Notes: generated from the sequence alone by a model not told the origin. A stretch of DNA of 64,000 nt from a phage (GCA_012646185.1 GCA_012646185.1_4706.1), one strand, 5' to 3'; shown: positions 6,901 to 63,945, numbered from the stretch's first letter. Made by a program: numbers and translations.

Positions 6901-7591
6901 CGATTTCCATCACTGGGAACGTCGGCGTTAACGGCTCCAGCGTTAAGTAGTTGCTCCAGTCAATCTGTCCGCCAACCACCGATGGGGTAATCTCTAATAA
7001 CTGACACCACTCATAACGGTCCGGTACACTACTGGACGTTGTTGGTAAAGGTAACTTGTATACGCCAGTACGATTCAGATCGAACGCTTTTCTAGCCGAT
7101 CCTAAATCAACATAAATACTCGATGATGCGTTTGCACTATATGCCTCCAAAGCACCTAGCGTTGACCGATACATTGAGATGAACAACGTATCTTTCCAGT
7201 AAGGGTTATCCTTGGTTGGTTCTAAAGCGATTTGTGCAAAAATGCTGTTCTGCGCCCCTAACTGGTATGTTGCATTTAAAGATTCTTCTGTGAAATAACT
7301 TTCTGCAATCGTCAGATGGAACTGCTCGTTCAATAATGCGAGTGCGGCGCGTCCAGTAACATCCTCATTACCGGTTTCTTTTTTCATGATCGCGCCGAAC
7401 GGAAACAATGTCGCGAATGACCGTTTTGGTTTATTAACCGTAACCGTCCCCGTGTATTTTCCAACACCATCAAGTTTTTGACTATCGCCAACAGCAGTGA
7501 CTGCGATACCATCAGCCGGGATATTTGTTTTATTTAGTACATTGAGTTGGTCAACCAGATCCTGCTTATCGTCAGGTAAGAATGTCGCCAT
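3995..7591 (-). CDS. large hypothetical protein (1198 aa), probably virion or tail associated
   Basis: Very long uninterrupted ORF co-oriented with tail fiber genes; no motif recognised by eye. Confidence 0.7.
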   Translation of the reverse strand: MATFLPDDKQDLVDQLNVLNKTNIPADGIAVTAVGDSQKLDGVGKYTGTVTVNKPKRSFATLFPFGAIMKKETGNEDVTGRAALALLNEQFHLTIAESYFTEESLNATYQLGAQNSIFAQIALEPTKDNPYWKDTLFISMYRSTLGALEAYSANASSSIYVDLGSARKAFDLNRTGVYKLPLPTTSSSVPDRYEWCQLLEITPSVVGGQIDWSNYLTLEPLTPTFPVMEIDTTYYFLLWTFNHKDWYVKQITASERYNDVAQLIGKWMITASPVNFVGYGHARFLTRNTGTFTDPETDHYVLNESGVMVNNRHFIAATRQEAQPDGDATTEGQSLLILGAGIFSHTTDDTKLKAHYLTLAEASFDAYIKAFYAGLEPPDTPTRWIANWIVNGKQPVLAHYPLAKDDYPTHGGFHDTAVTFTNGIGKITHGTPTFGEYMDLVVQVYEGKLGWQNLNADVFKTNDDGTIDWDTKGTVFPIEKVALRTKRYVSADGDDLEACTDDEVGTIVLKDKSVNGSYLVAWAPRVPVEYGGYLIKTNECQHNRPIQVPVTRDYMGNASDAEQWFCEAAYTLYRLTQQERYQKAYKASLFTIEEYTRIDANDKFFRQVKGTDRYDTDGIAYTYTYPSKAPFTITRDTDGWIVIQASSAQIYLEQQAIPFRVNRDSILRVTCGGKDAAGVAIPVEISLSLSLDKTEANAKTYKLVLPSSAEPKGWDFKIGSLIPADAVDEASTPTGDAVTGSVLISADKVGWKDDVAITTEFSEAAEDSWDGLFLKAQLTAAGGQFEFNPTAKQIVRQVSYFASIDYNVRVEDANGWRWWYMLPATTARNTLTLSANGWRLSGYQPGHADTDPKPSAPVWGDGSTEILFLPDDSDIAEGVFKLYAINNPPSTYTTDDGYTMLFTLKATFEAEGTLRVGDCTIVNQRLDPLPYTPGIIPFSNNYIPNAPTFDSWRGQPYPGYQHPWVFLDMDVSTERRDLMIQNVVNFWYDSQQWYYQKFGVLGPGASAYVWDRWDAPSGSKVNDFTMYHFGDQTAWSGYQPRAFFSAVRLYAGLLDRGLAVPEKLTTYISHWIDFLFTYQQENAYQSPTDFPMDKPPAFIPNDFTGHMAGLWLAGASLAMLYGHPNDKGYSVAVNAYNEIVENYINHYTVDDVMNGGWSPAPDSANLGRDGMYFGFWSGEILRGLGYYIALLRDVKPTI

Positions 7592-7604
7592 TATTTACTC
7601 CACC

Positions 7605-8435
7605 TTAATCGTAACTAAAATAAAGTTTGCTGCTGACGCCGCTATCGGAATGAGGTTTTAATACCAGAACAGAGCTTCCGAACGACGGAAGTATTGGAAC
7701 ATCTAAATCGTTCGCATCGGCAACTTTTCCATTATAAACGACATTGGCTGTTGTGATGAGTTCCCAAGCTAAGGTATAACTCATTGAAATCAGCGACGAG
7801 GCTAAACGGAATGCATTGTATCCTTCTGGAGTATCTCCAACCGACATCGAACGTATCGCATCTTGCGGCGGTAAATTTAGCTTGATGCCGTAGGTGCTGA
7901 ATGTGTGGAAATCCCCTTGTTTACTATCTTCTGGATAATACGAGGTTAGCGGTTCTCGTACCGTAAACAGTTCGCTAATATCGGTACTTACATCTTTTCG
8001 TGCGAGGAATTGAAACGTACCGTGCCATGATGCCGATGCGTCAGAACGAACGGGAACAGATATGGTTTTCTCGCCGCTTTCAAATTTAACCTGTGACGCT
8101 AACGCTGAAGAATCAAAGATCGTTAAATCGATCTTCAACCCATACTTCTTAAACAGCTGCGTTAAGCAGTCTGCTATCGTCGTCTTATCAGCAACGACAA
8201 TAAAAGGTTGGTGTTTGATAAAGAGCTTATTAATGTCTCGACGTTGAAGATAAACCTGTACGGGGTCTTCGACGTAGTAAACCGATTGTGGTGCGGGGGC
8301 TATAGAAAGGCGTAACCGACCCGATGCACCATACCAGGCTGGCGTTAACGTAACGTCTGACAGGGACAACGGATGCTGGAGATAGGCGTTTATTTTAGAT
8401 AACACTTCCTCCTGCCATGATGCTTCAGGATACAT
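7605..8435 (-). CDS. hypothetical protein (276 aa); third member of the shared N-terminal module family
   Basis: N-terminus ASWQEEVLSKIN...YLQRRDINKLF...YGLKIDLTIFD parallels 3261-3788 and 44535-45986; GAGGT before ATG at 8435. Confidence 0.6.
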   Translation of the reverse strand: MYPEASWQEEVLSKINAYLQHPLSLSDVTLTPAWYGASGRLRLSIAPAPQSVYYVEDPVQVYLQRRDINKLFIKHQPFIVVADKTTIADCLTQLFKKYGLKIDLTIFDSSALASQVKFESGEKTISVPVRSDASASWHGTFQFLARKDVSTDISELFTVREPLTSYYPEDSKQGDFHTFSTYGIKLNLPPQDAIRSMSVGDTPEGYNAFRLASSLISMSYTLAWELITTANVVYNGKVADANDLDVPILPSFGSSVLVLKPHSDSGVSSKLYFSYD

Positions 8436-8493
8436 GCTGACCTCATAGATGATCGTTGATAGGAAAGAAACCTAATTCATACCATGGGAACCT

Positions 8494-8555
8494 CAAAAAA
8501 AAAAAAATAGGAAAATAGGAAAAACGGTGTTCACCCCTAAAAAGGATGAACACCG
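8494..8555 (-). terminator. intrinsic terminator for minus-strand transcript: 9-bp stem hairpin (8525-8555) followed by a T14 run (A14 on plus, 8494-8507)
   Basis: Inverted repeat cggtgttca/tgaacaccg with 13-nt loop, directly after stop of 8576-9154 gene. Confidence 0.6.
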
Positions 8556-8575
8556 CGTACCGTTATATCGAACGA

Positions 8576-9154
8576 TTAGTAAGGAATCAGATCGTTAAGC
8601 TTTTCTTCTTCAATGACAAAGAAGTTGTTCTGGTCGTCTAAATCTGTTAACATGACTTGTCCGACAGTAAAGCACGTACCGCCCTTCTTAGGCATCCATA
8701 CCGGCTCATTCGTTACCTTATCGGGATACCATTTGAAACGATTGGTATCCAAGAAGAACGCTGCTTTGTTCGCTTTATCGGTTGAACGATAGCTAACCAA
8801 TGCAGGCCACTCAATCCAGGTGTTTGTGCATGGTACATGTAAAGGATACCAGGCACGCCAGCGTTTGCCTGGGTTGCTAGGATCAACCCAATACTCGGCA
8901 GTCAATACAGCATCTTTATAGTGTTTCTGCATTAACATTTCGAGCACAAGCTCATTACCTTTTGATGCATCTAAAGTCACTTCAGCCATATAAAGAGATT
9001 TAGGTAATTCAGACTGTTTTGCGGTTGGTGTTACAACGCCGGTAACCAACGGTCTGCTCGGTTTACGTTTCTGTTCTTTCCGACGTGTGTAAAAGAATAG
9101 TCCGACAGATACGGCAACAAGTATAATAAACAACACTACCTTAATCCAATTCAT
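8576..9154 (-). CDS. membrane-anchored hypothetical protein (192 aa, single N-terminal TM helix)
   Basis: N-terminus MNWIKVVLFIILVAVSVGLFFY followed by a basic stretch; 4-nt overlap with upstream gene. Confidence 0.6.
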   Translation of the reverse strand: MNWIKVVLFIILVAVSVGLFFYTRRKEQKRKPSRPLVTGVVTPTAKQSELPKSLYMAEVTLDASKGNELVLEMLMQKHYKDAVLTAEYWVDPSNPGKRWRAWYPLHVPCTNTWIEWPALVSYRSTDKANKAAFFLDTNRFKWYPDKVTNEPVWMPKKGGTCFTVGQVMLTDLDDQNNFFVIEEEKLNDLIPY

Positions 9155-9891
9155 TCGTCAATATCTCCTTCTACAAACAGAGTCAATTTGATTTCAGGGT
9201 CATAGAACATAGTAATCACACCATCTTGCTCTACTGAACGTTGTGCTGTCCATATTAACTGTTCATCCCGAATATCAAATTTATGCCGCTCATCACTCAC
9301 CACGGCTTCCGCATCGACATAGTGATAAATGCCACCTTCAGGATTCTCAATCCAACCACGTACCATCAGACGGTCTTTCTGCTTACGTGTGAAGAATCGA
9401 TACGGATCTTCGCAGGTTCGCCAAACGTCACCGCTCTCGCTTACCAGTTCGTCATACACCTTCGAAAGCTCGTCAGGTACTGGAATCAAAATGTTATCCT
9501 GATAGCCTGACCAGAAACGACGTACGTCTTGTAATAAATCGTCGCTTTGTAGTTTAACCACATGCGTGTGATTCGCAAAATCAGTTTTTGATTCGCTGAA
9601 CCAAAACGCTTTTTCGTTCCCTACAACGACATCGATTCGATCATGTTGAACACAAACCCACCCATAAATCCATCCGTAACCATCAACGTTATATAACGTT
9701 GTTTGGTAACTGACAATATCGATGTCGTCAAACGATGCTAATAAAGCTTTAGCCGCTAGAAGCGGGGAGAAGTTTTTCGATTGCGATGCTTTACGGATGT
9801 CTTCTTTGATGAGTAATTTACCGTGAATTGGATGTTCAATAACAAAACCACAGGAGAGCATGATGCTTCCTTGATAACGTGCTTCTTGCAT
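9151..9891 (-). CDS. hypothetical protein (246 aa)
   Basis: Long ORF, co-oriented, overlaps downstream gene start by 4 nt. Confidence 0.55.
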   Translation of the reverse strand: MQEARYQGSIMLSCGFVIEHPIHGKLLIKEDIRKASQSKNFSPLLAAKALLASFDDIDIVSYQTTLYNVDGYGWIYGWVCVQHDRIDVVVGNEKAFWFSESKTDFANHTHVVKLQSDDLLQDVRRFWSGYQDNILIPVPDELSKVYDELVSESGDVWRTCEDPYRFFTRKQKDRLMVRGWIENPEGGIYHYVDAEAVVSDERHKFDIRDEQLIWTAQRSVEQDGVITMFYDPEIKLTLFVEGDIDE

Positions 9892-9974
9892 TTCTATTCC
9901 TCAAATAAAGATTGTCTTTTACGTGACACGATTACAGTTTTATCAGTTCACAGGTTACCGATTTTCGGTAAGAA

Positions 9975-55626: not shown

Positions 55627-56907
55627 TCAGAAACGATTCACAGTACGTCCTGTCCACGCGCTCAGGATGTTGTTACGTTCCATCTCAGCCCGACGACGTA
55701 AACCGTTTGGCGACTGCGGTGCTTGCGGCATCCCCCATCCAGCCGGTTGCATACCCATGCCCGGCCAAGCAGCGTTATTGAACATCGTACCGTTACGTTC
55801 CGCAACACGGTTCATCAGCGCATCAAACGTGCTATTACCTGCCGGTTGGTTACCGCCGCTTTCCCACTGATTAGGTTGGACAGGTGCGGTTTTACCCAAC
55901 AGGTTATCGATCACACTGCCTGTTGAAGCAGGACGCGGTTGCATACCTTCATGTGCAGCTGCTGATGGATTTGGCTTAACCGTCGGCTGTGGACGACTGT
56001 TCAGCGTTACACCCATGTTGTATTTCGCTGGCGGAATCTGACCACGATGTTGATTGATCGGTTCAAAATCCTCAACCCAGGTAACATCACAGTAGCCGTT
56101 CTCTTTACCGTCGTACTTATCACCAAACAGTTTGATGAGATTGTTCAGCGGTTCCATCAGCTTAGCGAAGCTGTGGATAAGACAATCGAAATACGGAGCA
56201 TGAGGATCGCTTGACCCAGCGTTGTACGTTTCACTTACCTCACCCGCGTGCGGGATAACGTACTCAACCAGGTTTCTCAGCATGTTAAGATCTTTCTTGG
56301 AAATCTCAACACCACACCAGTACGTTTTCTTATCTTTCGTGCTGATGTGTTCTTCTTCCATGAACGGGAAAGTAACGACCGCAACGCGGGTCATCTTCTT
56401 ACCCATGTAGGTTGCGCCGGTACGACGAAGATAAATTTTGGACAGCGTATACGGTGTGTCGCGTTTCAGCCAAACGGTGACCAGTTTGCCCAGGGTCGTT
56501 AGTGTTTTATCGCTGGCGTCCGCAAGGATGTTGAAGAACTCTTTTTGCTTCGGTCCGAAACGTTTTGCTTCTTTAGGATTGATTGCGGTTTCAACCATCC
56601 AAATCAGCATGGAGCATAGCGTGGCGTTAAAACGAACAACCATCGCACGACGCAGGAACTGAAGTACTTCCGATTCGCCGTTCATCACGTCTTCACTTAG
56701 CGGATGGAACAGCACACGTTCAGCCAGCTGATTTCCGGTACGAACTTCAGAAACCGGCATCAGCAACGGCATGCTTTCCACGGTAGCGGCAACTGCAACA
56801 ACTTTACCATCCCCATCCGTAAAACGATATTCTAATTCGTGGGCGTCATTCTCAAAATAGTTAACGCTCTGTAGTGCTTTGCGATAAGCTTCGATAAGCT
56901 TCGACAT
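55627..56907 (-). CDS. hypothetical protein (426 aa) with low-complexity P/Q/G/N/M-rich C-terminal region
   Basis: C-terminal ~120 aa rich in Pro, Gln, Gly, Asn, Met (GMQPAGWGMPQAPQSPNG). Confidence 0.55.
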   Translation of the reverse strand: MSKLIEAYRKALQSVNYFENDAHELEYRFTDGDGKVVAVAATVESMPLLMPVSEVRTGNQLAERVLFHPLSEDVMNGESEVLQFLRRAMVVRFNATLCSMLIWMVETAINPKEAKRFGPKQKEFFNILADASDKTLTTLGKLVTVWLKRDTPYTLSKIYLRRTGATYMGKKMTRVAVVTFPFMEEEHISTKDKKTYWCGVEISKKDLNMLRNLVEYVIPHAGEVSETYNAGSSDPHAPYFDCLIHSFAKLMEPLNNLIKLFGDKYDGKENGYCDVTWVEDFEPINQHRGQIPPAKYNMGVTLNSRPQPTVKPNPSAAAHEGMQPRPASTGSVIDNLLGKTAPVQPNQWESGGNQPAGNSTFDALMNRVAERNGTMFNNAAWPGMGMQPAGWGMPQAPQSPNGLRRRAEMERNNILSAWTGRTVNRF

Positions 56908-56962
56908 ATTGTATTTCCTTTTCTTTACGTCAACGGTCCCCCTACAACAGGGGACCTATGGA

Positions 56963-58549
56963 TTAGAAGTTGCCTTTGGTAGTTACCGCATCCACCAGGT
57001 TAAACAAATCAACGCTCAGCTTATACACCTCCTGCTGGCTACGGTTGAGCAGCGGGCTGTATGCAGATGGGTTGATGTTCGGCATGGTGTACGGAATCGG
57101 TGCAGAACCGTCAACGCTGATCTTGAACTGGCTGTCCAGGAACAGGTTAATCGCGCCGCTCACCATAACCGCATTCGGGTTGTTGCCCAACATGGAGGGT
57201 AGGATATTGGTAATCATGTCAGAACGCATTTGTTCAGCAGCACGGTTACAATCGTATCCTTTAATGAACGGTACTGCGTCGGTAACCGCAACCGCCCACT
57301 GACCAGGCATGATACCGAGTTCTGGGTGACCATGGTTGTCAGCAATGAAACGGAACGATTCCAACATGCGGTATGTCATCGCAGCAGGCATCATTGCAGC
57401 AAGCGATGAGCAATACAGCGTTGGATAATCGATCACGTCCCAGCTCTGACTATCGGTCGGCATCCAACCAAACTCGGTGGTTGCTGATGTACCACGACGA
57501 GCTTCCACATACGGGAATAACGTTAAGACATCACGGATATGTTCACCGAACATCCGTTTCATGTCCGCCCAACTCAGGCTGCCGCTGAACGCGAATCCTT
57601 CATCACGCATAATCGCACCGAATACCGGATGCGCAACCAACGGTTCTTCGCGAACAGCTTGAGCGGCTTCTACGTAAATATCCTCGTTCTCTGCGCTACC
57701 TGGATGAGACCCGCTTTCGTACGTCTGACGAATAGCCCCAACATTATCGAAGGCTTTTCTTAGATAAATGGTTGGGATGTTCGTATCGGCACTAGCGGGT
57801 TTGATTTTCTCTGTTGCGAAACACATTGCTGCTTCCACACCACGGAAAACCGGTTCCGGTTGCGGTGGATAGGATGTACGATGAACCACATCAGCGTAGG
57901 CGGGATCGAACTGTTGCATTACGTTCTGCATGGCTGGGTCCATGAACTGGTTATCAAAACCACCATTGCCCACCCAACGCGCTGTTGATGCATAGGTCAG
58001 CGTATCCTGAACACGAGTACTGAACTGAACATCACGATTAACCGGGTCGTATGCGCCGGTCAACAGGTTCGTTGCGTCCATCGGGGTTGCACGAACGATT
58101 TGCTTACCGAACATATCCGTTGTGGTTGTTTCGGTTACCTGGATTACGTTCGTGAAGAAGAACACCAGTTCGTTCGGCAGATCGATAGCGCGCGTTGTAA
58201 ACGCATCGAGGCTTACAGAATGGTCGGTGTATCCAGAAATGTAATGGACACGCTTGGTTCCTGGTGCGAGGGTCAAGGATTCTTCTACCGCCATCATGAA
58301 ATGGAAACGACGTGTGCCCCAACCATTCGCAATCTCCGAAACCCCCTCAGGTTCTGCAGACTGCTGCAACAAACCGGTTGCAAGCTTATTGATTGCTGAT
58401 GGTGTTGTTGCCGTACCGAACTTCGTCGTGTTAATGAAGTCTTCGATGCTACGCATGCTATCTGCGTGGAATCGTAGTGGGCGACGTTGTACGTTGTTGT
58501 ACGGTGCGGTTTCAACCATCAGTATTTCACGAACATTCATCGGGATCAT
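56963..58549 (-). CDS. hypothetical protein (528 aa)
   Basis: Long ORF, co-oriented, 1-nt gap to upstream gene. Confidence 0.6.
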   Translation of the reverse strand: MIPMNVREILMVETAPYNNVQRRPLRFHADSMRSIEDFINTTKFGTATTPSAINKLATGLLQQSAEPEGVSEIANGWGTRRFHFMMAVEESLTLAPGTKRVHYISGYTDHSVSLDAFTTRAIDLPNELVFFFTNVIQVTETTTTDMFGKQIVRATPMDATNLLTGAYDPVNRDVQFSTRVQDTLTYASTARWVGNGGFDNQFMDPAMQNVMQQFDPAYADVVHRTSYPPQPEPVFRGVEAAMCFATEKIKPASADTNIPTIYLRKAFDNVGAIRQTYESGSHPGSAENEDIYVEAAQAVREEPLVAHPVFGAIMRDEGFAFSGSLSWADMKRMFGEHIRDVLTLFPYVEARRGTSATTEFGWMPTDSQSWDVIDYPTLYCSSLAAMMPAAMTYRMLESFRFIADNHGHPELGIMPGQWAVAVTDAVPFIKGYDCNRAAEQMRSDMITNILPSMLGNNPNAVMVSGAINLFLDSQFKISVDGSAPIPYTMPNINPSAYSPLLNRSQQEVYKLSVDLFNLVDAVTTKGNF

Positions 58550-58550
58550 T

Positions 58551-60137
58551 TTATTTTTTTCCTCTTAAATTTACTACGTGTTCATTTAATCGAACAACTA
58601 ATTGCACAAGCTGCTGACGGATATCTGCTGGACAAAGCATCAATCCTTTACGGTCAGCTGGGACTTTCTCAAGGATTTCCGGGCCTGCTGCTGAAACATC
58701 CCAGTCCCATTCACAAAACGCATCGGCCACCATGTTAATACCGACAACCGGTAAAGTTGTACGTTCATCTTCATACATGGCGTGTGGATACAATTTATTG
58801 ACAGTAATGATCTCCTGTGGTTTTAATTGGTGGATAATCTGATAAACATCGTCGCGTTTGACCTGGATACCTACGGTCAGCGCTGCCAGTTGAGGAAAAC
58901 CCCAATGGTCTAATAAGCAAGCTGCAATCGCTAACGCTTTTGCTTGATGCACGGCTTCAATCGGTGCCAGACTTCTCGCCGGAAGATGGCTATCAAGCAA
59001 CCATTGTGCCAGTGCTCGGCATCCACGGTTGATTGGTTTTAACTCAACGGTGTCATCATGTTTAGCGTACGTGTATCCGTCGTAACGTTTTGCGATACGC
59101 GCATACATGTCTTCAACTTTACCGTAAGGTGCCGTTTCGTCGACGTCGTGCAACACACGTTCCATCTGGGTAAGATACGCGATATCAAGAATGAGTACAC
59201 GCGGTGAACGTTTATCTTTCACCATCAACGCATCAATCACGCCTTGACTGTCTTCATCTTGCGCGTTCCCTCGTGGGGTTTTCTCACGAATCGGTCCGCT
59301 GAAACGTCGTTCCGTACAAAGGTTATTCACATAGCTAAAGATCAGTGTTACCAGATGCGTACAACTCACCAACACCCCATCTTTAACGACAGGCTGTACG
59401 GCTTGGTCCAAGTCGCGTACGGCGAGACGGCGGACGATGGCTTGTGAACGCAACCAGCCGGGCACTTTCTCCGTCGACATGTAATCCACGGTCATCGACA
59501 GCGTGATCTTTTTATCACCCGTCTGTGCGCGGATATAGTCTTCCAGTCGGTCGTAAGCGGCGATATCGTGAATGCGTGTTTTATACATCAACGACATAGC
59601 CACTTCTTCTTTACGAACCGTTCCGTACGTTTTCCCTGCGTCAATCAGAAACTCTGCCCAAATCGGCACCATCAGACGGACGTAGATCGCTAACGCCGTT
59701 AACTCAACGTAATCATTTCGTAAATAGGTTTTCTCAGGAATATCATCCTCACCTAATGTTGTTTTCATGTCCGGCGGTAATTTTACCCAACCCGGGGTAT
59801 TACACAACGCCAGAATCTCTTCGTACACAACCGGTTTGTAAATTTCACCAACAGCGCGACTCAACTCCTCCATTTGTTGTTGTGGAGCAATGTAGTTATC
59901 CATCGCTTCACGTGCTTTAACGAACCCTTCGAAGATGTCGTCAATTCGACGTGGGTTCTTTTGTTCTATCCAGGCGAGATACTTGTTAATCTCCCGCATC
60001 TGATTGCTAGCCATATCCCCATCAATCTTGATGTAACCCTGACCTGAAAATTCCACAGTACGTCCATCACGGTGTTTGATGAGATAGTGATCCAGCTTTT
60101 CTTTTCCTTGCGTCGTAATGACGGGCACTATGTGCAT
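58551..60137 (-). CDS. hypothetical protein (~528 aa)
   Basis: Start moved to ATG 60137 (MHIVPV) with AAGAGG SD. Confidence 0.6.
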   Translation of the reverse strand: MHIVPVITTQGKEKLDHYLIKHRDGRTVEFSGQGYIKIDGDMASNQMREINKYLAWIEQKNPRRIDDIFEGFVKAREAMDNYIAPQQQMEELSRAVGEIYKPVVYEEILALCNTPGWVKLPPDMKTTLGEDDIPEKTYLRNDYVELTALAIYVRLMVPIWAEFLIDAGKTYGTVRKEEVAMSLMYKTRIHDIAAYDRLEDYIRAQTGDKKITLSMTVDYMSTEKVPGWLRSQAIVRRLAVRDLDQAVQPVVKDGVLVSCTHLVTLIFSYVNNLCTERRFSGPIREKTPRGNAQDEDSQGVIDALMVKDKRSPRVLILDIAYLTQMERVLHDVDETAPYGKVEDMYARIAKRYDGYTYAKHDDTVELKPINRGCRALAQWLLDSHLPARSLAPIEAVHQAKALAIAACLLDHWGFPQLAALTVGIQVKRDDVYQIIHQLKPQEIITVNKLYPHAMYEDERTTLPVVGINMVADAFCEWDWDVSAAGPEILEKVPADRKGLMLCPADIRQQLVQLVVRLNEHVVNLRGKK

Positions 60138-60194
60138 AACAACCTCTTTTCGCGGTTCCCTGTTAAAACGTCTTCTGTGACGTCTACCACAAAG

Positions 60195-60210
60195 GTAATA
60201 TAAGCGTGAA
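60195..60210 (-). promoter_or_regulatory. variant of the conserved promoter-like element (gtaatataagcgtgaa), about 58 nt upstream of ATG at 60137
   Basis: Matches the 20-mer at 14177 and 42189 at 14 of 16 positions; minus-sense reads TTCACGCTTATATTAC. Confidence 0.3.
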
Positions 60211-60341
60211 TAATTTTGGATTCCGGCTGAGTTATCGCTCAGCATGCAAGGCATCCCGCCGAAGCGAGACACCTTGCACTAACGGAAAATATTCGCGTTA
60301 CCTTCTGAATCGAAGACTCAGAATGCGATGCTAAAGCGTTA

Positions 60342-61130
60342 TTAGAACGCTAAGCCATCAAAGGCTATGGACGGATCGTCGTCGTCATTTGCGCTTGGCG
60401 CATCCCAACGGGTATCAGGGGCCGCTGAAGCCGAACTTGATGCGTTAGAGTTACCGTTGTACTGGCCATTACCAGCATTACGGTTACCGCCGCCGTTGTT
60501 ATTGTTACGGTTATAGCTATTGTTGCCATTACTTACGCTACGGCTTTCACCGTCGAAATTGGTTGCGAGGATGCTCGGCAACACTGCGCGATGAATACGT
60601 ACAAATTCCAACGCACAAAGCGGAGAAACAACCCCGATCTGTAAAGGTTGCCCAGACTCATCAACCAGAGCGTGGAAACGCGGCGGCTTGAATACGAATT
60701 GGATGTTCGGTTTTTGGTACGCTGTTACAGCGATATATACCGAACCATCATCGTTCTTACCAACCCATGTTGTACTTTCGGTAATCTGTTTCTTCTTACC
60801 TGGGTTATTGCGATCGTCGATAACCTTTTCGTTCTTCATCGCAAAACGTTGGCCTGGTTTACCCTTAGCAACCTGCTCGAGGATCGCAAGCAGGTTATAG
60901 AACGCGTATGAACTCATGCGCGCCCAAATGCTTTCAGCGCGACCCTGCTGGTCTTTACGACCGGTGTAAACCGTGATACGCGGTTGATTCTTAGCAACGC
61001 TAATTTTCAATGAGGGGATTGAATTACCGCCCTCAACCTTTTCGTCCGCCCACAGTTTCCAGTTGTTGTCGTCATACGCTGTAGGAATAATGTTTCCTTG
61101 TGGTTTACTGCCCGAATTCCAATTGCTCAT
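60342..61130 (-). CDS. putative single-stranded DNA-binding protein (SSB-like architecture)
   Basis: Globular N-terminal part, then Asn/Gly-rich linker (NRNNNNGGGNRNAGNGQYNGNSN) and acidic C-terminal tip DDDDPSIAFDGLAF, reminiscent of SSB tails ending DDDIPF. Confidence 0.45.
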   Translation of the reverse strand: MSNWNSGSKPQGNIIPTAYDDNNWKLWADEKVEGGNSIPSLKISVAKNQPRITVYTGRKDQQGRAESIWARMSSYAFYNLLAILEQVAKGKPGQRFAMKNEKVIDDRNNPGKKKQITESTTWVGKNDDGSVYIAVTAYQKPNIQFVFKPPRFHALVDESGQPLQIGVVSPLCALEFVRIHRAVLPSILATNFDGESRSVSNGNNSYNRNNNNGGGNRNAGNGQYNGNSNASSSASAAPDTRWDAPSANDDDDPSIAFDGLAF

Positions 61131-61203
61131 TTTCAGCCTCGTTACGTAGTGTGAATCAATTTCTGGTTCAGATGATAGTCAATATTAGTTAAAAATTACA
61201 GCC

Positions 61204-62037
61204 TCAGCGGAACATGTCCAACAGAAAACGTTTTGCGAAGGGGTCACGTAACTGGTTGACACCAAAGCGTGTACGGTCTTCTGTTGTTAATGGATTCCAT
61301 TGACTCTGTTTCGCAAGATCTAACAGCATCCTTTTTATTTTCACCGGCCCACTGTTGAACTGTACGGCTTGGTCACCGAACGTTCCCAACGTCATCTTTG
61401 TAAATGGAAGATTCGCAACCTCTGGACGATCCCCACCAGTAAGTTTGGTCGACCACTGATGTTTTCGTTTCAAGGTTCCAGTATGGCTTTCTACCAAAAT
61501 AAGTTCACCAAAACCGGTTCTTGCCAACAAGTCAGAAACATAGTGCGTGGTGATATACGATGTCTTGGTTATCGTGGGTAATTTACAATCCATCGATTCG
61601 ATATTAGGGAGTCGATCTACAGACGCCATCAACCCACGATAAAGTGTAGCGAGTCCTTTTTGTTTTTCGGTGTGTGGCTCCTTATGTATAGCGTGCGGAT
61701 AAACACGCTTTATTGACGCATAGGTTGGCGCATATATCCGCAAACGAATATGGGGAACGAGTTCATTCACCAACTGCCTTAGCTGCAGTAACTCGTTTTG
61801 AAAATCCCCTGTTATCATCGATAACGGTAATTTATGTTGTTCAACGTCTTCAAAGCTTTCAACGAAATTGCGTGCTAAAGTACGCAGGTTGAACAACCAA
61901 TCCATCGGTGTTTCTGGCTGTTGCTGTACTGCTGATAGTGTTGCTGACGTCCCTACCGATAAAGGATAATCACCTAACGTGCGGGCGTACATATTGCTCA
62001 TACCCCACAACTCCTTCTTATCATGGCAACGTATCAA
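61204..62037 (-). CDS. hypothetical protein (277 aa)
   Basis: ORF, overlaps downstream nuclease gene by 17 nt. Confidence 0.5.
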   Translation of the reverse strand: MIRCHDKKELWGMSNMYARTLGDYPLSVGTSATLSAVQQQPETPMDWLFNLRTLARNFVESFEDVEQHKLPLSMITGDFQNELLQLRQLVNELVPHIRLRIYAPTYASIKRVYPHAIHKEPHTEKQKGLATLYRGLMASVDRLPNIESMDCKLPTITKTSYITTHYVSDLLARTGFGELILVESHTGTLKRKHQWSTKLTGGDRPEVANLPFTKMTLGTFGDQAVQFNSGPVKIKRMLLDLAKQSQWNPLTTEDRTRFGVNQLRDPFAKRFLLDMFR

Positions 62038-63163
62038 GCCAAGCAGAAACCTTTAAGGCATCAACGTTCGGGTATTTATTACGAATGCGTTCGACCAACA
62101 AACGCTTAACGTTGTCCTTTGTCAAGTCCCCACCTTTCTCGATAACGTTATTGACAAAACTGTTCTTTAATAGCGACTGGTTGTTCTTGGCATCCGTTTT
62201 AATTGACCAGACAAAACCTGGATACAAAGAAGGGATAGAACGAAACGTTTTCGCCGCATCGTCTTCCTTATCGCAGCGTATTCGGATATGATCACCCTTC
62301 TTCAATGGAGCCAATTCCCGTTCCAACACACGGACAATTTCATCTCCAACAAGACCATGCAGTTTTATCGTCTTGTAGACATCTGCTTTCTTGTTTTCAA
62401 CAAATTCCCACTGGTCGTTAAACGTTTCCGTTAACATATAACGGAGATACCCTTTTGGACCTTCTTCACCGTGCGCCAAGCGACCGAACGAACCGCCAAC
62501 CATGATACGTCCTTTCTGGGATTGTAAGTGGATGTGCCCGCTCACGACCCACCCTTGGGTCTTCTCCACCATTGCGTTATACGCATCGCTGCTATGAACA
62601 CATGTTGCTTTTAACGCTTCTGGTGGAAGCTGATATTCAAACGCGCCATGCATCAGAATGAAGTCCGGCGATCCCTTCTCATCAATAAGTCGGTTCACAG
62701 CCGACAACGTCACATCCGGATCGTGGCTGTAGTTATCTGGAAGATAGAGCACTTTTAAACCAAAGTCTTCATCAACCATGCAGAGATCATCGTAATAACG
62801 AACTTTCGCTCCTATCTCCATGACCTCGTTCTGTTCAACGAACCACTGGCTTTGCTTCTGGTCGTGTAAATTGGTACCCTCAAGAAAGATCAACGTAATA
62901 TCGTGTTTTCTTGCATACCGTAACAACCAGGTGCCCCAGGCACGAACAGCAACCACGTCACTCGTCACAAACGTCGTGATACGATCGAAGACATCACCGC
63001 TGAACGTAATCACATCAAGCAGCGCAGGATCTTCTTTTGTAATGTAATAACGCAGTTGGCTAATCAGGTTTACTGTCGGTGTTTGACGATGGATAAAGTG
63101 AATATCCGACAAATTGATTCCACGTAATACCCCAGGCGTTTTATTTCGACTGAAGTCTCGCAT
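62021..63163 (-). CDS. calcineurin-like metallophosphoesterase, Mre11/SbcD-like nuclease candidate
   Basis: Motifs in order: LSDIHFIH (DxH), FSGDVFDR (GDxxD), LEGTNLHD (GNHD-like), ILMHGAFE (H), VSGHIHLQ (GHxH). Confidence 0.55.
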   Translation of the reverse strand: MRDFSRNKTPGVLRGINLSDIHFIHRQTPTVNLISQLRYYITKEDPALLDVITFSGDVFDRITTFVTSDVVAVRAWGTWLLRYARKHDITLIFLEGTNLHDQKQSQWFVEQNEVMEIGAKVRYYDDLCMVDEDFGLKVLYLPDNYSHDPDVTLSAVNRLIDEKGSPDFILMHGAFEYQLPPEALKATCVHSSDAYNAMVEKTQGWVVSGHIHLQSQKGRIMVGGSFGRLAHGEEGPKGYLRYMLTETFNDQWEFVENKKADVYKTIKLHGLVGDEIVRVLERELAPLKKGDHIRIRCDKEDDAAKTFRSIPSLYPGFVWSIKTDAKNNQSLLKNSFVNNVIEKGGDLTKDNVKRLLVERIRNKYPNVDALKVSAWLDTLP

Positions 63164-63945
63164 CAGAATTCCTCTAGGTTGCTGCTGCTAATAGTCCCCG
63201 TCGTAGACGGCATGTTTCTACTACCCACCGACGCAGTTGTTGAAGAGGTTCTGGCTAGATTCAATCCATTTAATAACCCACGCTCTTTTACCGTACGACG
63301 TGAACCATCACGAACATCGTAAAGGGGTACGTTATAATGGTCAAAAATCCGAAGCCATTGCACGTAATCAGCAACAACATGGTCTTTGCTTTCATTCGGG
63401 GCAAAGCGATCAAGCTGATGGTCGACGTAAGCTTTAGCGCTTTCAGGATTGAAGTTATACTGTCGACGTGCTTTGTCCACCATCGCGAGGAAACATGTGT
63501 TGGGGTCACGATTGATGTATGAACGTGTCCGGATAAAGATAGCCGGTACCGTAAACAGAACCTTGTTGTTATTCCCATCAGCAACGATGTTAACCGCACG
63601 ATGCGGTTGGCCTGCTATCTTACACCAATCGTGAACAATGGTGCTATTACTCAGCATCTCCGCGTATTCAGGATCCTGCGAAAACATTCCTGCGAACGGA
63701 TACAAGAAATGTTTAACGAACAGCGATTCAGGCAGGATGTTGGGACGCGTCATCTCCTGTAAACCTTTTCGTAGAAGCTCGCTATTGTCTACCAGCTCCT
63801 GCCACATGTCCGGTCGTGTTTTCGGGATGGACGGATCCTGAGCGCGGCGAATGCGCTCTTCCTCATTTACAACCACTACCCCAGCCGGATACCCCAATAA
63901 ATCCGTTCCTTCGCTAACGTTGCTGTTAGTTTGGCGCGCCTTCAT
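63163..63945 (-). CDS. hypothetical protein (260 aa)
   Basis: ORF, 1-nt overlap with nuclease gene. Confidence 0.5.
   Translation of the reverse strand: MKARQTNSNVSEGTDLLGYPAGVVVVNEEERIRRAQDPSIPKTRPDMWQELVDNSELLRKGLQEMTRPNILPESLFVKHFLYPFAGMFSQDPEYAEMLSNSTIVHDWCKIAGQPHRAVNIVADGNNNKVLFTVPAIFIRTRSYINRDPNTCFLAMVDKARRQYNFNPESAKAYVDHQLDRFAPNESKDHVVADYVQWLRIFDHYNVPLYDVRDGSRRTVKERGLLNGLNLARTSSTTASVGSRNMPSTTGTISSSNLEEF

Follow-up and report, generated by a model that had tools for sequence, protein, structure and literature searches.

The ChmC/Imp6 protein of a Goslar-like jumbo phage and the SSB-like C-terminal tip that recurs in its family

[quoted passage not shown] Its product is almost the same as Goslar ChmC, which belongs to the small set of phage-nucleus proteins with a studied function. 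The gene is already characterized and in itself adds nothing new, and it does not represent a new SSB. The new element, provisionally, is a consensus of the SSB C-terminal type (SSB-Ct) that extends through the whole family and is degenerate in the Goslar clade. A search of the accessible literature, including reviews, gave no text that links SSB, an "acidic tip" or the motif DDDIPF to ChmC, Imp6 or gp67, which is a provisional result, and the paper describing ChmC never mentions SSB (PMC11077065). As a comparative result this is of modest value, and the SSB-type tip represents a modest but testable new lead, which turns a vague tail phenotype into the precise and inexpensive question of how an essential tail works. 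The role of the tip could show how ChmC/Imp6 is coupled to Imp1/PicA, RNA polymerase or replication enzymes, and it bears on the handling of ssDNA in phiKZ-like phages, which possess no recognizable SSB, clamp or primase.

Identity and gene neighborhood

The window DNA is 98% identical to Escherichia phage vB_EcoM_Goslar over 5.5 kb, and the encoded protein shares 99.6% identity with Goslar_00176, its sole match in the Goslar genome. The two proteins are one residue apart, and this residue is located in the tip (PSIAF in the window, PSVAF in Goslar). The name Chimallin C (ChmC) has been given to Goslar gp176, phiKZ gp67 and PhiPA3 gp61 (Enustun et al., NAR 2024, PMC11077065), and phiKZ gp67 has also been named Imp6 (Kokontis et al., preprint 10.1101/2024.03.27.586873). 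Homology of the window protein to all three could be detected: tblastn retrieved phiKZ gp67 (E 5e-11) and PhiPA3 gp61 (E 1e-7), and also 201phi2-1 gp123, blastp matched phiKZ gp67 with E 9e-19, and in PHROGs the protein belongs to phrog_3284 (E 1e-35), a family of unknown function. ChmA is called "gp246" in PMC11077065, yet the annotation of Goslar_00246 is RNase HI, and the identification with gp176 therefore rests on homology and synteny and not on the number alone. With the ChmC proteins of Goslar, PhiPA3, phiKZ and 201phi2-1 the window protein has in common the length class, a Whirly-like domain followed by a disordered N/G-rich tail of 50-70 residues with an acidic end, and the position in the gp64-gp70 gene block. 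It differs from PhiPA3 and phiKZ ChmC by a sequence identity of only ~30% and by a tip that is longer and rearranged.

Seven consecutive genes of the window (55627..63945) are collinear one-to-one with phiKZ gp70 through gp64, and the gp64-gp70 order is also found in PhiPA3, 201phi2-1, Bacillus phage AgentSmith and metagenomic contigs. All neighbors described here lie on the minus strand. Directly downstream of chmC follow the orthologs of phiKZ gp68 and gp69. [quoted passage not shown] The latter (56963..58549, Goslar gp174, blastp E 1e-15 over the full length), two genes off, is the nuclear import factor Imp1/PicA, which in phiKZ is a direct partner of Imp6/ChmC (bioRxiv 10.1101/2024.03.27.586873). 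Next is the ortholog of phiKZ gp70 (55627..56907, Goslar gp173, blastp E 3e-24, phrog_3520). Upstream of chmC there is a phiKZ gp66-like gene (61204..62001, Goslar gp177, blastp E 5.5e-23, phrog_3229), annotated in Goslar at 265 aa from an ATG 12 codons inside the TTG-started ORF, and then an SbcD/Mre11-like metallophosphoesterase gene (62021..63163, Goslar gp178, phiKZ gp65), assigned by phrog_100 (E 3.7e-40) and by blastp to phiKZ gp65 (E 9e-51), with a Pfam Metallophos match at E 0.046 that stays below the cutoff. The first-pass annotation had placed the ChmC gene beside an SbcD-like gene; the latter is indeed nearby, but the two are not directly adjacent, since the gp66-like gene lies between them.

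chmC is located in the conserved block of chimallin-encoding phages that contains the nvRNAP gene gp68 and Imp1/PicA gp69, and the chimallin gene itself is located outside the window. In one metagenomic contig, a Pfam Chimallin_Phikzvirus match is found ~7 kb from a ChmC-family member (P0020). Another family member, P0007, had no relatives in IMG/VR when used as query. Within the window, no tRNA or Rfam features were found.

The gene and its folded domain

The chmC/imp6 gene comprises 262 codons, from an ATG start to a TAA stop at 60342-60344. Direct reading of the sequence 5' of the start (...ACGTAACGAGGCTGAAA-ATG) reveals a Shine-Dalgarno-like GAGG at 61137..61140 (minus strand), 6 nt 5' of the ATG. 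The ORF with an SSB-like tail that had been annotated from the sequence is thus present. A scan for sigma-70 promoters gave nothing and all terminator-like matches were on the non-coding plus strand, but these scans carry no information, as transcription in these phages relies on RNA polymerases of their own. The tail is truly coding and not an artifact, since a relative with 64% identity (P0002) retains the same plan despite a different linker sequence.

Relatives were gathered with residues 1-205 only, which resulted in 476 sequences at E<=1e-3 among 1.84 billion representatives; a 945-aa repeat protein (P0009) was left out as a likely artefactual match. An AlphaFold model based on 134 aligned relatives reached a mean pLDDT of 82.8, with values >95 over residues ~20-190, and it was used in place of a single-sequence run that reached a pLDDT of 38.9. 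In this model, residues ~20-195 (60546..61073, minus strand) are predicted to form a Whirly/PUR-like nucleic-acid-binding domain with the topology beta-beta-beta-alpha followed by beta-beta-beta-(beta)-alpha, i.e. the tandem sheet/helix repeat of the Whirly/PUR fold. The closest solved folds are the plant proteins p24/PBF-2 (1L3A) and StWhy2 (3N1H), MRP1/MRP2 from T. brucei (2GIA) and Pur-alpha (3K44/8CHV). The Whirly/PUR/MRP superfamily thus provides the best structural neighbors of the model, with the tandem beta-sheet-plus-helix repeat in both, and its members are single-strand nucleic-acid binders, as tetramers and single-strand binding have been reported for ChmC as well (PMC11077065). 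Pfam gave nothing at E<=1 for the window protein, and the resemblance as modeled is remote and on the level of the fold, not of membership in the Whirly or PurA sequence families. The model independently agrees with the Whirly/PUR assignment in PMC11077065 and argues against an OB fold. In addition, K42, R51 and R71 align with R35, R44 and R63 of PhiPA3 ChmC, the mutation of which ("Rmut") abolishes the binding of RNA and ssDNA (PMC11077065); the three lysines of the PhiPA3 "Kmut" are unconserved in the window protein (S37/Y55/S67).

The fold also decides on the earlier reading of the protein as a genuine SSB with an OB fold that belongs to a replication or recombination module. That reading could draw on the tail architecture and on the SbcD-like gene nearby, and it can now be practically dismissed. 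It had been noted that the N-terminal part does not obviously match the SSB OB-fold, and this holds: there is no Pfam match at E<=1 to an OB-fold SSB core and no true match in a PDB sequence search, which gave spurious WD40 matches alone, to the N-terminal 28 residues. A structure prediction had been suggested for finding an OB fold, and the confident model is Whirly/PUR-like instead, with Whirly, PUR and MRP proteins as neighbors, so that an OB-fold SSB is ruled out on the modeled fold. Of the designation "SSB-like protein" the plan of the tail survives and the classical SSB does not, as the protein is the RNA-binding ChmC/Imp6.

Published functions of ChmC/Imp6

The tetrameric state, the binding of RNA and ssDNA, the localization, the essentiality and the interaction with Imp1 are taken from the literature on orthologs, and the identity, fold class, tail composition and family-wide conservation of the tip come from the present analysis. 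PhiPA3 ChmC forms homotetramers and binds ssRNA with a Kd of 58 nM and ssDNA with a Kd of 184 nM, i.e. its affinity for ssDNA is about threefold weaker (PMC11077065). ChmC binds phage mRNAs in vivo, as detected by eCLIP, and forms condensates with RNA; it belongs to the most abundant early proteins, is found at or inside the shell of the phage nucleus, and must be present for the export of mRNA, the production of protein and the formation of plaques to proceed normally (PMC11077065). Knockdown of Goslar gp176 with dCas13d reduced plaquing to ~4% and resulted in small nuclei, nuclear retention of mRNA and less phage protein (PMC11077065). PhiPA3 ChmC is located at the shell, and Goslar ChmC forms puncta both inside the nucleus and on the shell (PMC11077065). 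In phiKZ, gp67/Imp6 and Imp1 form a stable 2:1 complex, and the phage nucleus takes up a topoisomerase of the host (10.1101/2024.03.27.586873). Gene 067 of phiKZ was a top match in an antisense screen and tolerates zero transposon insertions, which indicates that it is essential.

Regarding the tail, deletion of residues 204-251 in PhiPA3 ChmC abolished condensates and shell localization, and tetramers and RNA binding were kept (PMC11077065). Tail-deleted Goslar ChmC still formed puncta at the shell but did not rescue the titer (PMC11077065). The ChmC paper attributes the condensates to the N/G-rich region and regards the final part of the tail as an "electronegative cluster" rich in S/D/E (PMC11077065). 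In the literature accessible to the search, this region figures solely as such a cluster or as a component of a tail that forms condensates.

The C-terminal tail and its tip across the family

The low-complexity region of the window protein comprises residues 196-262 (67 residues, SRSVSNGNNSYNRNNNNGGGNRNAGNGQYNGNSNASSSASAAPDTRWDAPSANDDDDPSIAFDGLAF). It had been annotated as the C-terminal third and as an Asn/Gly-rich linker. The low complexity was confirmed, with an entropy of 3.01 bits in the linker versus a minimum of 3.80 among the 52-aa windows of the folded part, but the region amounts to 26% of the protein and not to a third. The enrichment in Asn and Gly is also real, yet the linker (residues 196-247, 60390..60545, minus strand) is not purely Asn/Gly and is better described as Asn/Ser/Gly/Ala-rich (N 27%, S 19%, G 13%, A 13%), with N+G+S amounting to 60% versus 22% in the remainder of the protein. 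From about residue 196 to the C-terminus the AlphaFold pLDDT is <60, with values of 43-57 in the linker, which points to disorder. The linker is followed by the acidic/hydrophobic tip NDDDDPSIAFDGLAF (residues 248-262, 60345..60389, minus strand), delineated from the ORF sequence and the C-terminal profile of the family. The last 17 residues contain five Asp, no Lys or Arg, and a terminal Phe. In the window tip DDDDPSIAFDGLAF, a DDDD run precedes PSIAFDGLAF, and the corresponding peptide of Goslar is SANDDDDPSIAFDGLAF.

As homologs were retrieved by the folded domain (residues 1-205) alone, their tails represent independent observations. A profile anchored at the C-terminus of 146 representatives gave the consensus FDDDIPF, the very heptapeptide with which E. 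coli SSB ends (checked as PPMDFDDDIPF in PDB 1EQQ/4MZ9). Position -7 is F in 37 of the 146 sequences, D occupies position -6 in 77, position -5 in 105 and position -4 in 112, and these are followed by I, L or F at -3 (116), P at -2 (102) and F, M, W or L at -1 (122, or 133 if any hydrophobic or aromatic residue is counted). An identity of at least 4/7 to FDDDIPF is reached by 91 of 151 family members (60%) versus one of 246 Goslar ORFs, and about 20% of the family members stay at or below 2/7. With 2.4-2.8 bits, the tip columns would rank 30th-51st among the 191 columns that cover the folded domain and have a median of 1.54 bits, and the linker between domain and tip is hypervariable, with medians of ~48 aa for its length and 44% for its G+N content. 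In some members the tail nearly equals the end of E. coli SSB (...QSRPQQSAPAAPSNEPPMDFDDDIPF) for more than ten residues, namely in P0020 (...QPPMDFDDSIPF; ...RPQQQQSQPASQPAVQPPMDFDDSIPF), P0106 (...PMDEFDDDIPF; ...QSRPAPAPNPMDEFDDDIPF) and P0058 (...EPPLDFDTDIPF).

The previously proposed architecture of an SSB interaction tail is therefore upheld, and it is more pronounced in the family consensus than in the window protein, whose tip has a C-anchored identity of 2/7 to FDDDIPF. The motif looks ancestral for the ChmC C-terminus, because nearly all deep family clusters contain canonical or near-canonical tips, among them those nearest to the Goslar clade, with the ends DDFDDDIAF and GMFDDIAI. 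The window tip, in turn, looks like a derived and degenerate variant: in the Goslar clade the motif would have drifted to DDDD-PSIAF-DGLAF, so that an acidic run is followed by P-S-I-A-F-D-G-L-A-F, and relatives finish with AAPAFQGLPL. Among cultured phages, phiKZ ends with FDEDMPSF and PhiPA3 with FDDEIPNF, in both of which one inserted residue separates the Pro from the Phe at the end (MPSF, IPNF), 201phi2-1 ends with ELASFDW and AgentSmith with FDTDVPM. Beta-clamp-binding motifs are of the QLxLF type, and such a motif was considered for the end F-[DQ]-G-L-[AP]-[FL] of the Goslar clade and rejected, as the spacing misfits.

Bacterial SSB (1EQQ/4MZ9) and ChmC thus share a disordered Gly/amide-rich linker of ~50 residues and an acidic tip that, in the ChmC family consensus, ends with hydrophobic-Pro-aromatic, and according to the literature both form homotetramers and tail-dependent condensates. 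They differ in the core, which in ChmC is Whirly/PUR-like and not OB, has no sequence homology to SSB and prefers RNA, and also in the linker, which is Asn-rich in the window protein but Gln/Pro-rich in bacterial SSB (in E. coli G 26%, Q 17%, P 15%). T7 gp2.5 and T4 gp32 are OB-fold SSBs of DNA replication with acidic C-terminal tails, in gp2.5 with a terminal Phe; the acidic tail is common to them and ChmC, and the OB fold and the replication role set them apart.

Possible functions of the tip

Combining the domain model with the published data, residues ~20-195 would fold and assemble into a homotetramer whose basic surface holds single-stranded RNA and, about threefold weaker, ssDNA, and residues 196-262 would form an Asn/Ser/Gly-rich linker and an acidic tip with a hydrophobic end, organized like the tail of bacterial SSB. 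The tip may then serve as a short peptide that docks to a partner protein, or fold back and occupy the basic surface with which the protein itself binds nucleic acid, or both. In the paradigms of SSB-Ct, T7 gp2.5 and T4 gp32, such tips recruit partners and compete with nucleic acid for the basic surface of their own protein. The SSB-Ct hexapeptide is described as a conserved site and hub for the many partner proteins of SSB (PMC5872125, PMC7145534). From the conservation pattern, we think that a docking and/or folding-back role, i.e. something more specific than an electronegative cluster, is most likely, because Pro, aliphatic and aromatic positions beside the acidic run are conserved, of which charge alone would need none. 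The obvious candidate for a partner would be Imp1/PicA, whose gene is two positions from chmC and whose binding to Imp6 is known.

It is possible, if rather unlikely, that the linker alone matters, by driving the RNA-protein condensates, and that the acidic end is a generic cluster which keeps ChmC in solution and dampens nonspecific binding of RNA, without any docking meaning. The loss of condensates upon tail deletion, with tetramers and RNA binding remaining (PMC11077065), can be read in this way, as can the fact that the protein is still essential in the Goslar clade, which lacks the canonical motif, and that about one fifth of the family is at 2/7 identity or less. Charge, however, does not explain the Pro at -2, the residues at -3, the hydrophobic or aromatic C-terminus or the Phe at -7, nor why these conserved positions sit beside a hypervariable linker. 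Moreover, the published PhiPA3 deletion took linker and tip together, so that a loss of condensates and a loss of a docking peptide are inseparable in it, and the loss of shell localization is also expected from a missing docking peptide. If the tip docks, its partner could also be a host protein, in that the tip mimics host SSB and would sequester or hijack the SSB-interacting nucleases, helicases and topoisomerases of the host or serve an Imp1-Imp6 import adaptor. The tails of P0020, P0106 and P0058 would fit such a mimicry, as would the role of the SSB-Ct hexapeptide as a partner hub and, for an import adaptor, the binding of Imp6 to the import factor Imp1 and the import of host topoisomerase into the phiKZ nucleus (10.1101/2024.03.27.586873). 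We nevertheless consider it very unlikely: Goslar ends with DGLAF although the SSB tip of its host E. coli is DDDIPF, the MPSF of phiKZ, the IPNF of PhiPA3 and the DVPM of the Bacillus phage deviate from the host motif as well, and about 20% of the family tips have Met as last residue. A terminal Met is unusual for bacterial SSBs. As the tips of phages whose hosts are known thus drift away from the host motif, a co-evolving phage partner is favored over host mimicry.

ChmC as a candidate for the missing SSB

A further question is whether ChmC is in addition the SSB of the phage nucleus, with the Whirly tetramer coating the ssDNA of replication and recombination and the tip recruiting phage enzymes such as PolB, a DnaB-like helicase, or RNase HI-like, RecA-like and SbcCD-like proteins. 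In its architecture ChmC corresponds to SSB point for point, with homotetramer, disordered Gly/amide-rich linker, FDDDIPF tip and tail-driven condensates, and liquid-liquid phase separation has been described for E. coli SSB itself (bioRxiv 10.1101/2022.01.17.476650). StWhy2 and p24, two of the closest folds, are ssDNA-binding Whirly proteins of plants, and the Kd of 184 nM for ssDNA (PMC11077065), the presence of ChmC among the most abundant early proteins and the position of chmC two genes from the SbcD-like nuclease gene are also in line with such a role. The same applies to the puncta that Goslar ChmC forms within the nucleus in addition to those on the shell, and a replication defect would also fit the small, DNA-poor nuclei after knockdown and the Rmut phenotype of a punctum without DNA.

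The candidate would fill a gap. A classic OB-fold SSB is a hallmark of group 2 jumbo phages and none is given for the phiKZ-like group 1, the replication apparatus of which is described without SSB, clamp and primase (Iyer et al. 2021). In Goslar no SSB annotation was found, and when 182 greedy ORFs of this genome with lengths of 90-450 aa were compared with Pfam, one batch being listed to E 0.0014, there was no family of the SSB, gp32 or gp2.5 type among the matches listed. This absence from Pfam is, however, also compatible with an SSB that is divergent or of a new kind and encoded at another place in the genome, or with an imported host SSB.

We regard it as unlikely that ChmC acts as the SSB of the phage nucleus, and equally doubtful is the wider notion of an SSB-equivalent hub, in which an SSB tail that was inherited or arose by convergence would belong to a protein that coats both ssDNA and nascent RNA and recruits phage or host enzymes or the Imp1 machinery. 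If true, the latter would account for the absence of a recognizable SSB in phiKZ-like phages. RNA is held about threefold tighter than ssDNA, eCLIP finds phage mRNAs, the knockdown traps mRNA in the nucleus, and PhiPA3 ChmC is located at the shell and not throughout the DNA-filled interior (PMC11077065). An SSB role is therefore the less likely one, and the published RNA data together with the shell localization argue that RNA is the main ligand of ChmC.

ChmC relatives with additional domains

The folded domain of ChmC (residues 1-205), when used as a query, retrieved family members whose chains are considerably extended. In some chimallin-encoding phages, ChmC carries two tandem Whirly-like domains per chain, as found in the homologs P0015, P0020, P0039 and P0058 (419-466 aa); one such two-domain ChmC is encoded at L015:9001-10263. 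These chains retain the SSB-like tip at their end, for example ...QPPMDFDDSIPF, which is near-identical to the end of E. coli SSB. If a chain has two Whirly-like domains, a four-domain assembly would be reachable by a mere dimer. Another family member, P0080 (435 aa), has an N-terminal extension of ~230 aa fused ahead of the ChmC domain, and its C-terminus still reads ...DNFLDEDILF.

P0001 (263 aa) is a ChmC with 99% identity and a linker that is longer by one Gly. In its label, it is a hypothetical protein from Salmonella enterica serovar Schwarzengrund, and the 241-kb contig on which it lies is probably a Goslar-like phage that was assembled with, or was infecting, Salmonella. P0009 (945 aa) matched query residues 134-183 at E 5e-24. 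This protein consists of 11 identical Arg/Ala-rich repeats, each of ~85 aa, and it probably represents a translated tandem DNA repeat that matches ChmC spuriously; it was left out of all statistics.

A second candidate tip in Goslar

In Goslar, the C-terminus that comes closest to being another SSB-like tip is that of Goslar_00094, a small hypothetical protein of 192 aa that is encoded inside the region covered by the window (record 108183-108761). Its tail, ...EEEKLNDLIPY, follows the acidic/hydrophobic-Pro-aromatic pattern and shares 3/7 identical residues with the ChmC family consensus FDDDIPF.

Genomic surroundings and gene numbering

In the mechanical ORF list, the gp68-like gene starts with GTG at 60272 (573 aa). 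A start at the ATG at 60137 (528 aa) is backed by the Goslar annotation and by the alignment with phiKZ gp68, and with this start chmC is followed downstream by a gap of 204 nt (window 60138-60341). The gap contains a short inverted repeat, TTCTGA-N9-TCAGAA (60303-60323), at which the terminator scan of the window made no call.

The gene numbers used in the ChmC paper and the GenBank locus tags of Goslar (MK327938) are not always the same. Goslar ChmA is named gp246 in that paper (Enustun et al., NAR 2024, PMC11077065), but the locus tag Goslar_00246 (L014:37087-38613) is annotated as RNase HI, and Goslar_00189 (L013:24003-25898) is the 631-aa PhiPA3-like protein.

The gene for the SbcC-like ATPase, Goslar_00012 (record 7499-9955), lies ~150 kb from that for the SbcD-like nuclease (window 62021-63163), so that the presumed SbcCD-like complex has its two parts encoded at separate places. 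Several small ORFs of Goslar locus L012 (record 98-148 kb, roughly equal to the first ~47 kb of the window) have Pfam matches to Sigma70_r4, HTH_38, HTH_23, HTH_28 and Myb-like DNA-binding families, with up to 4 members per family. These matches suggest that small putative regulators of transcription are clustered here, in a phage with RNA polymerases of its own.
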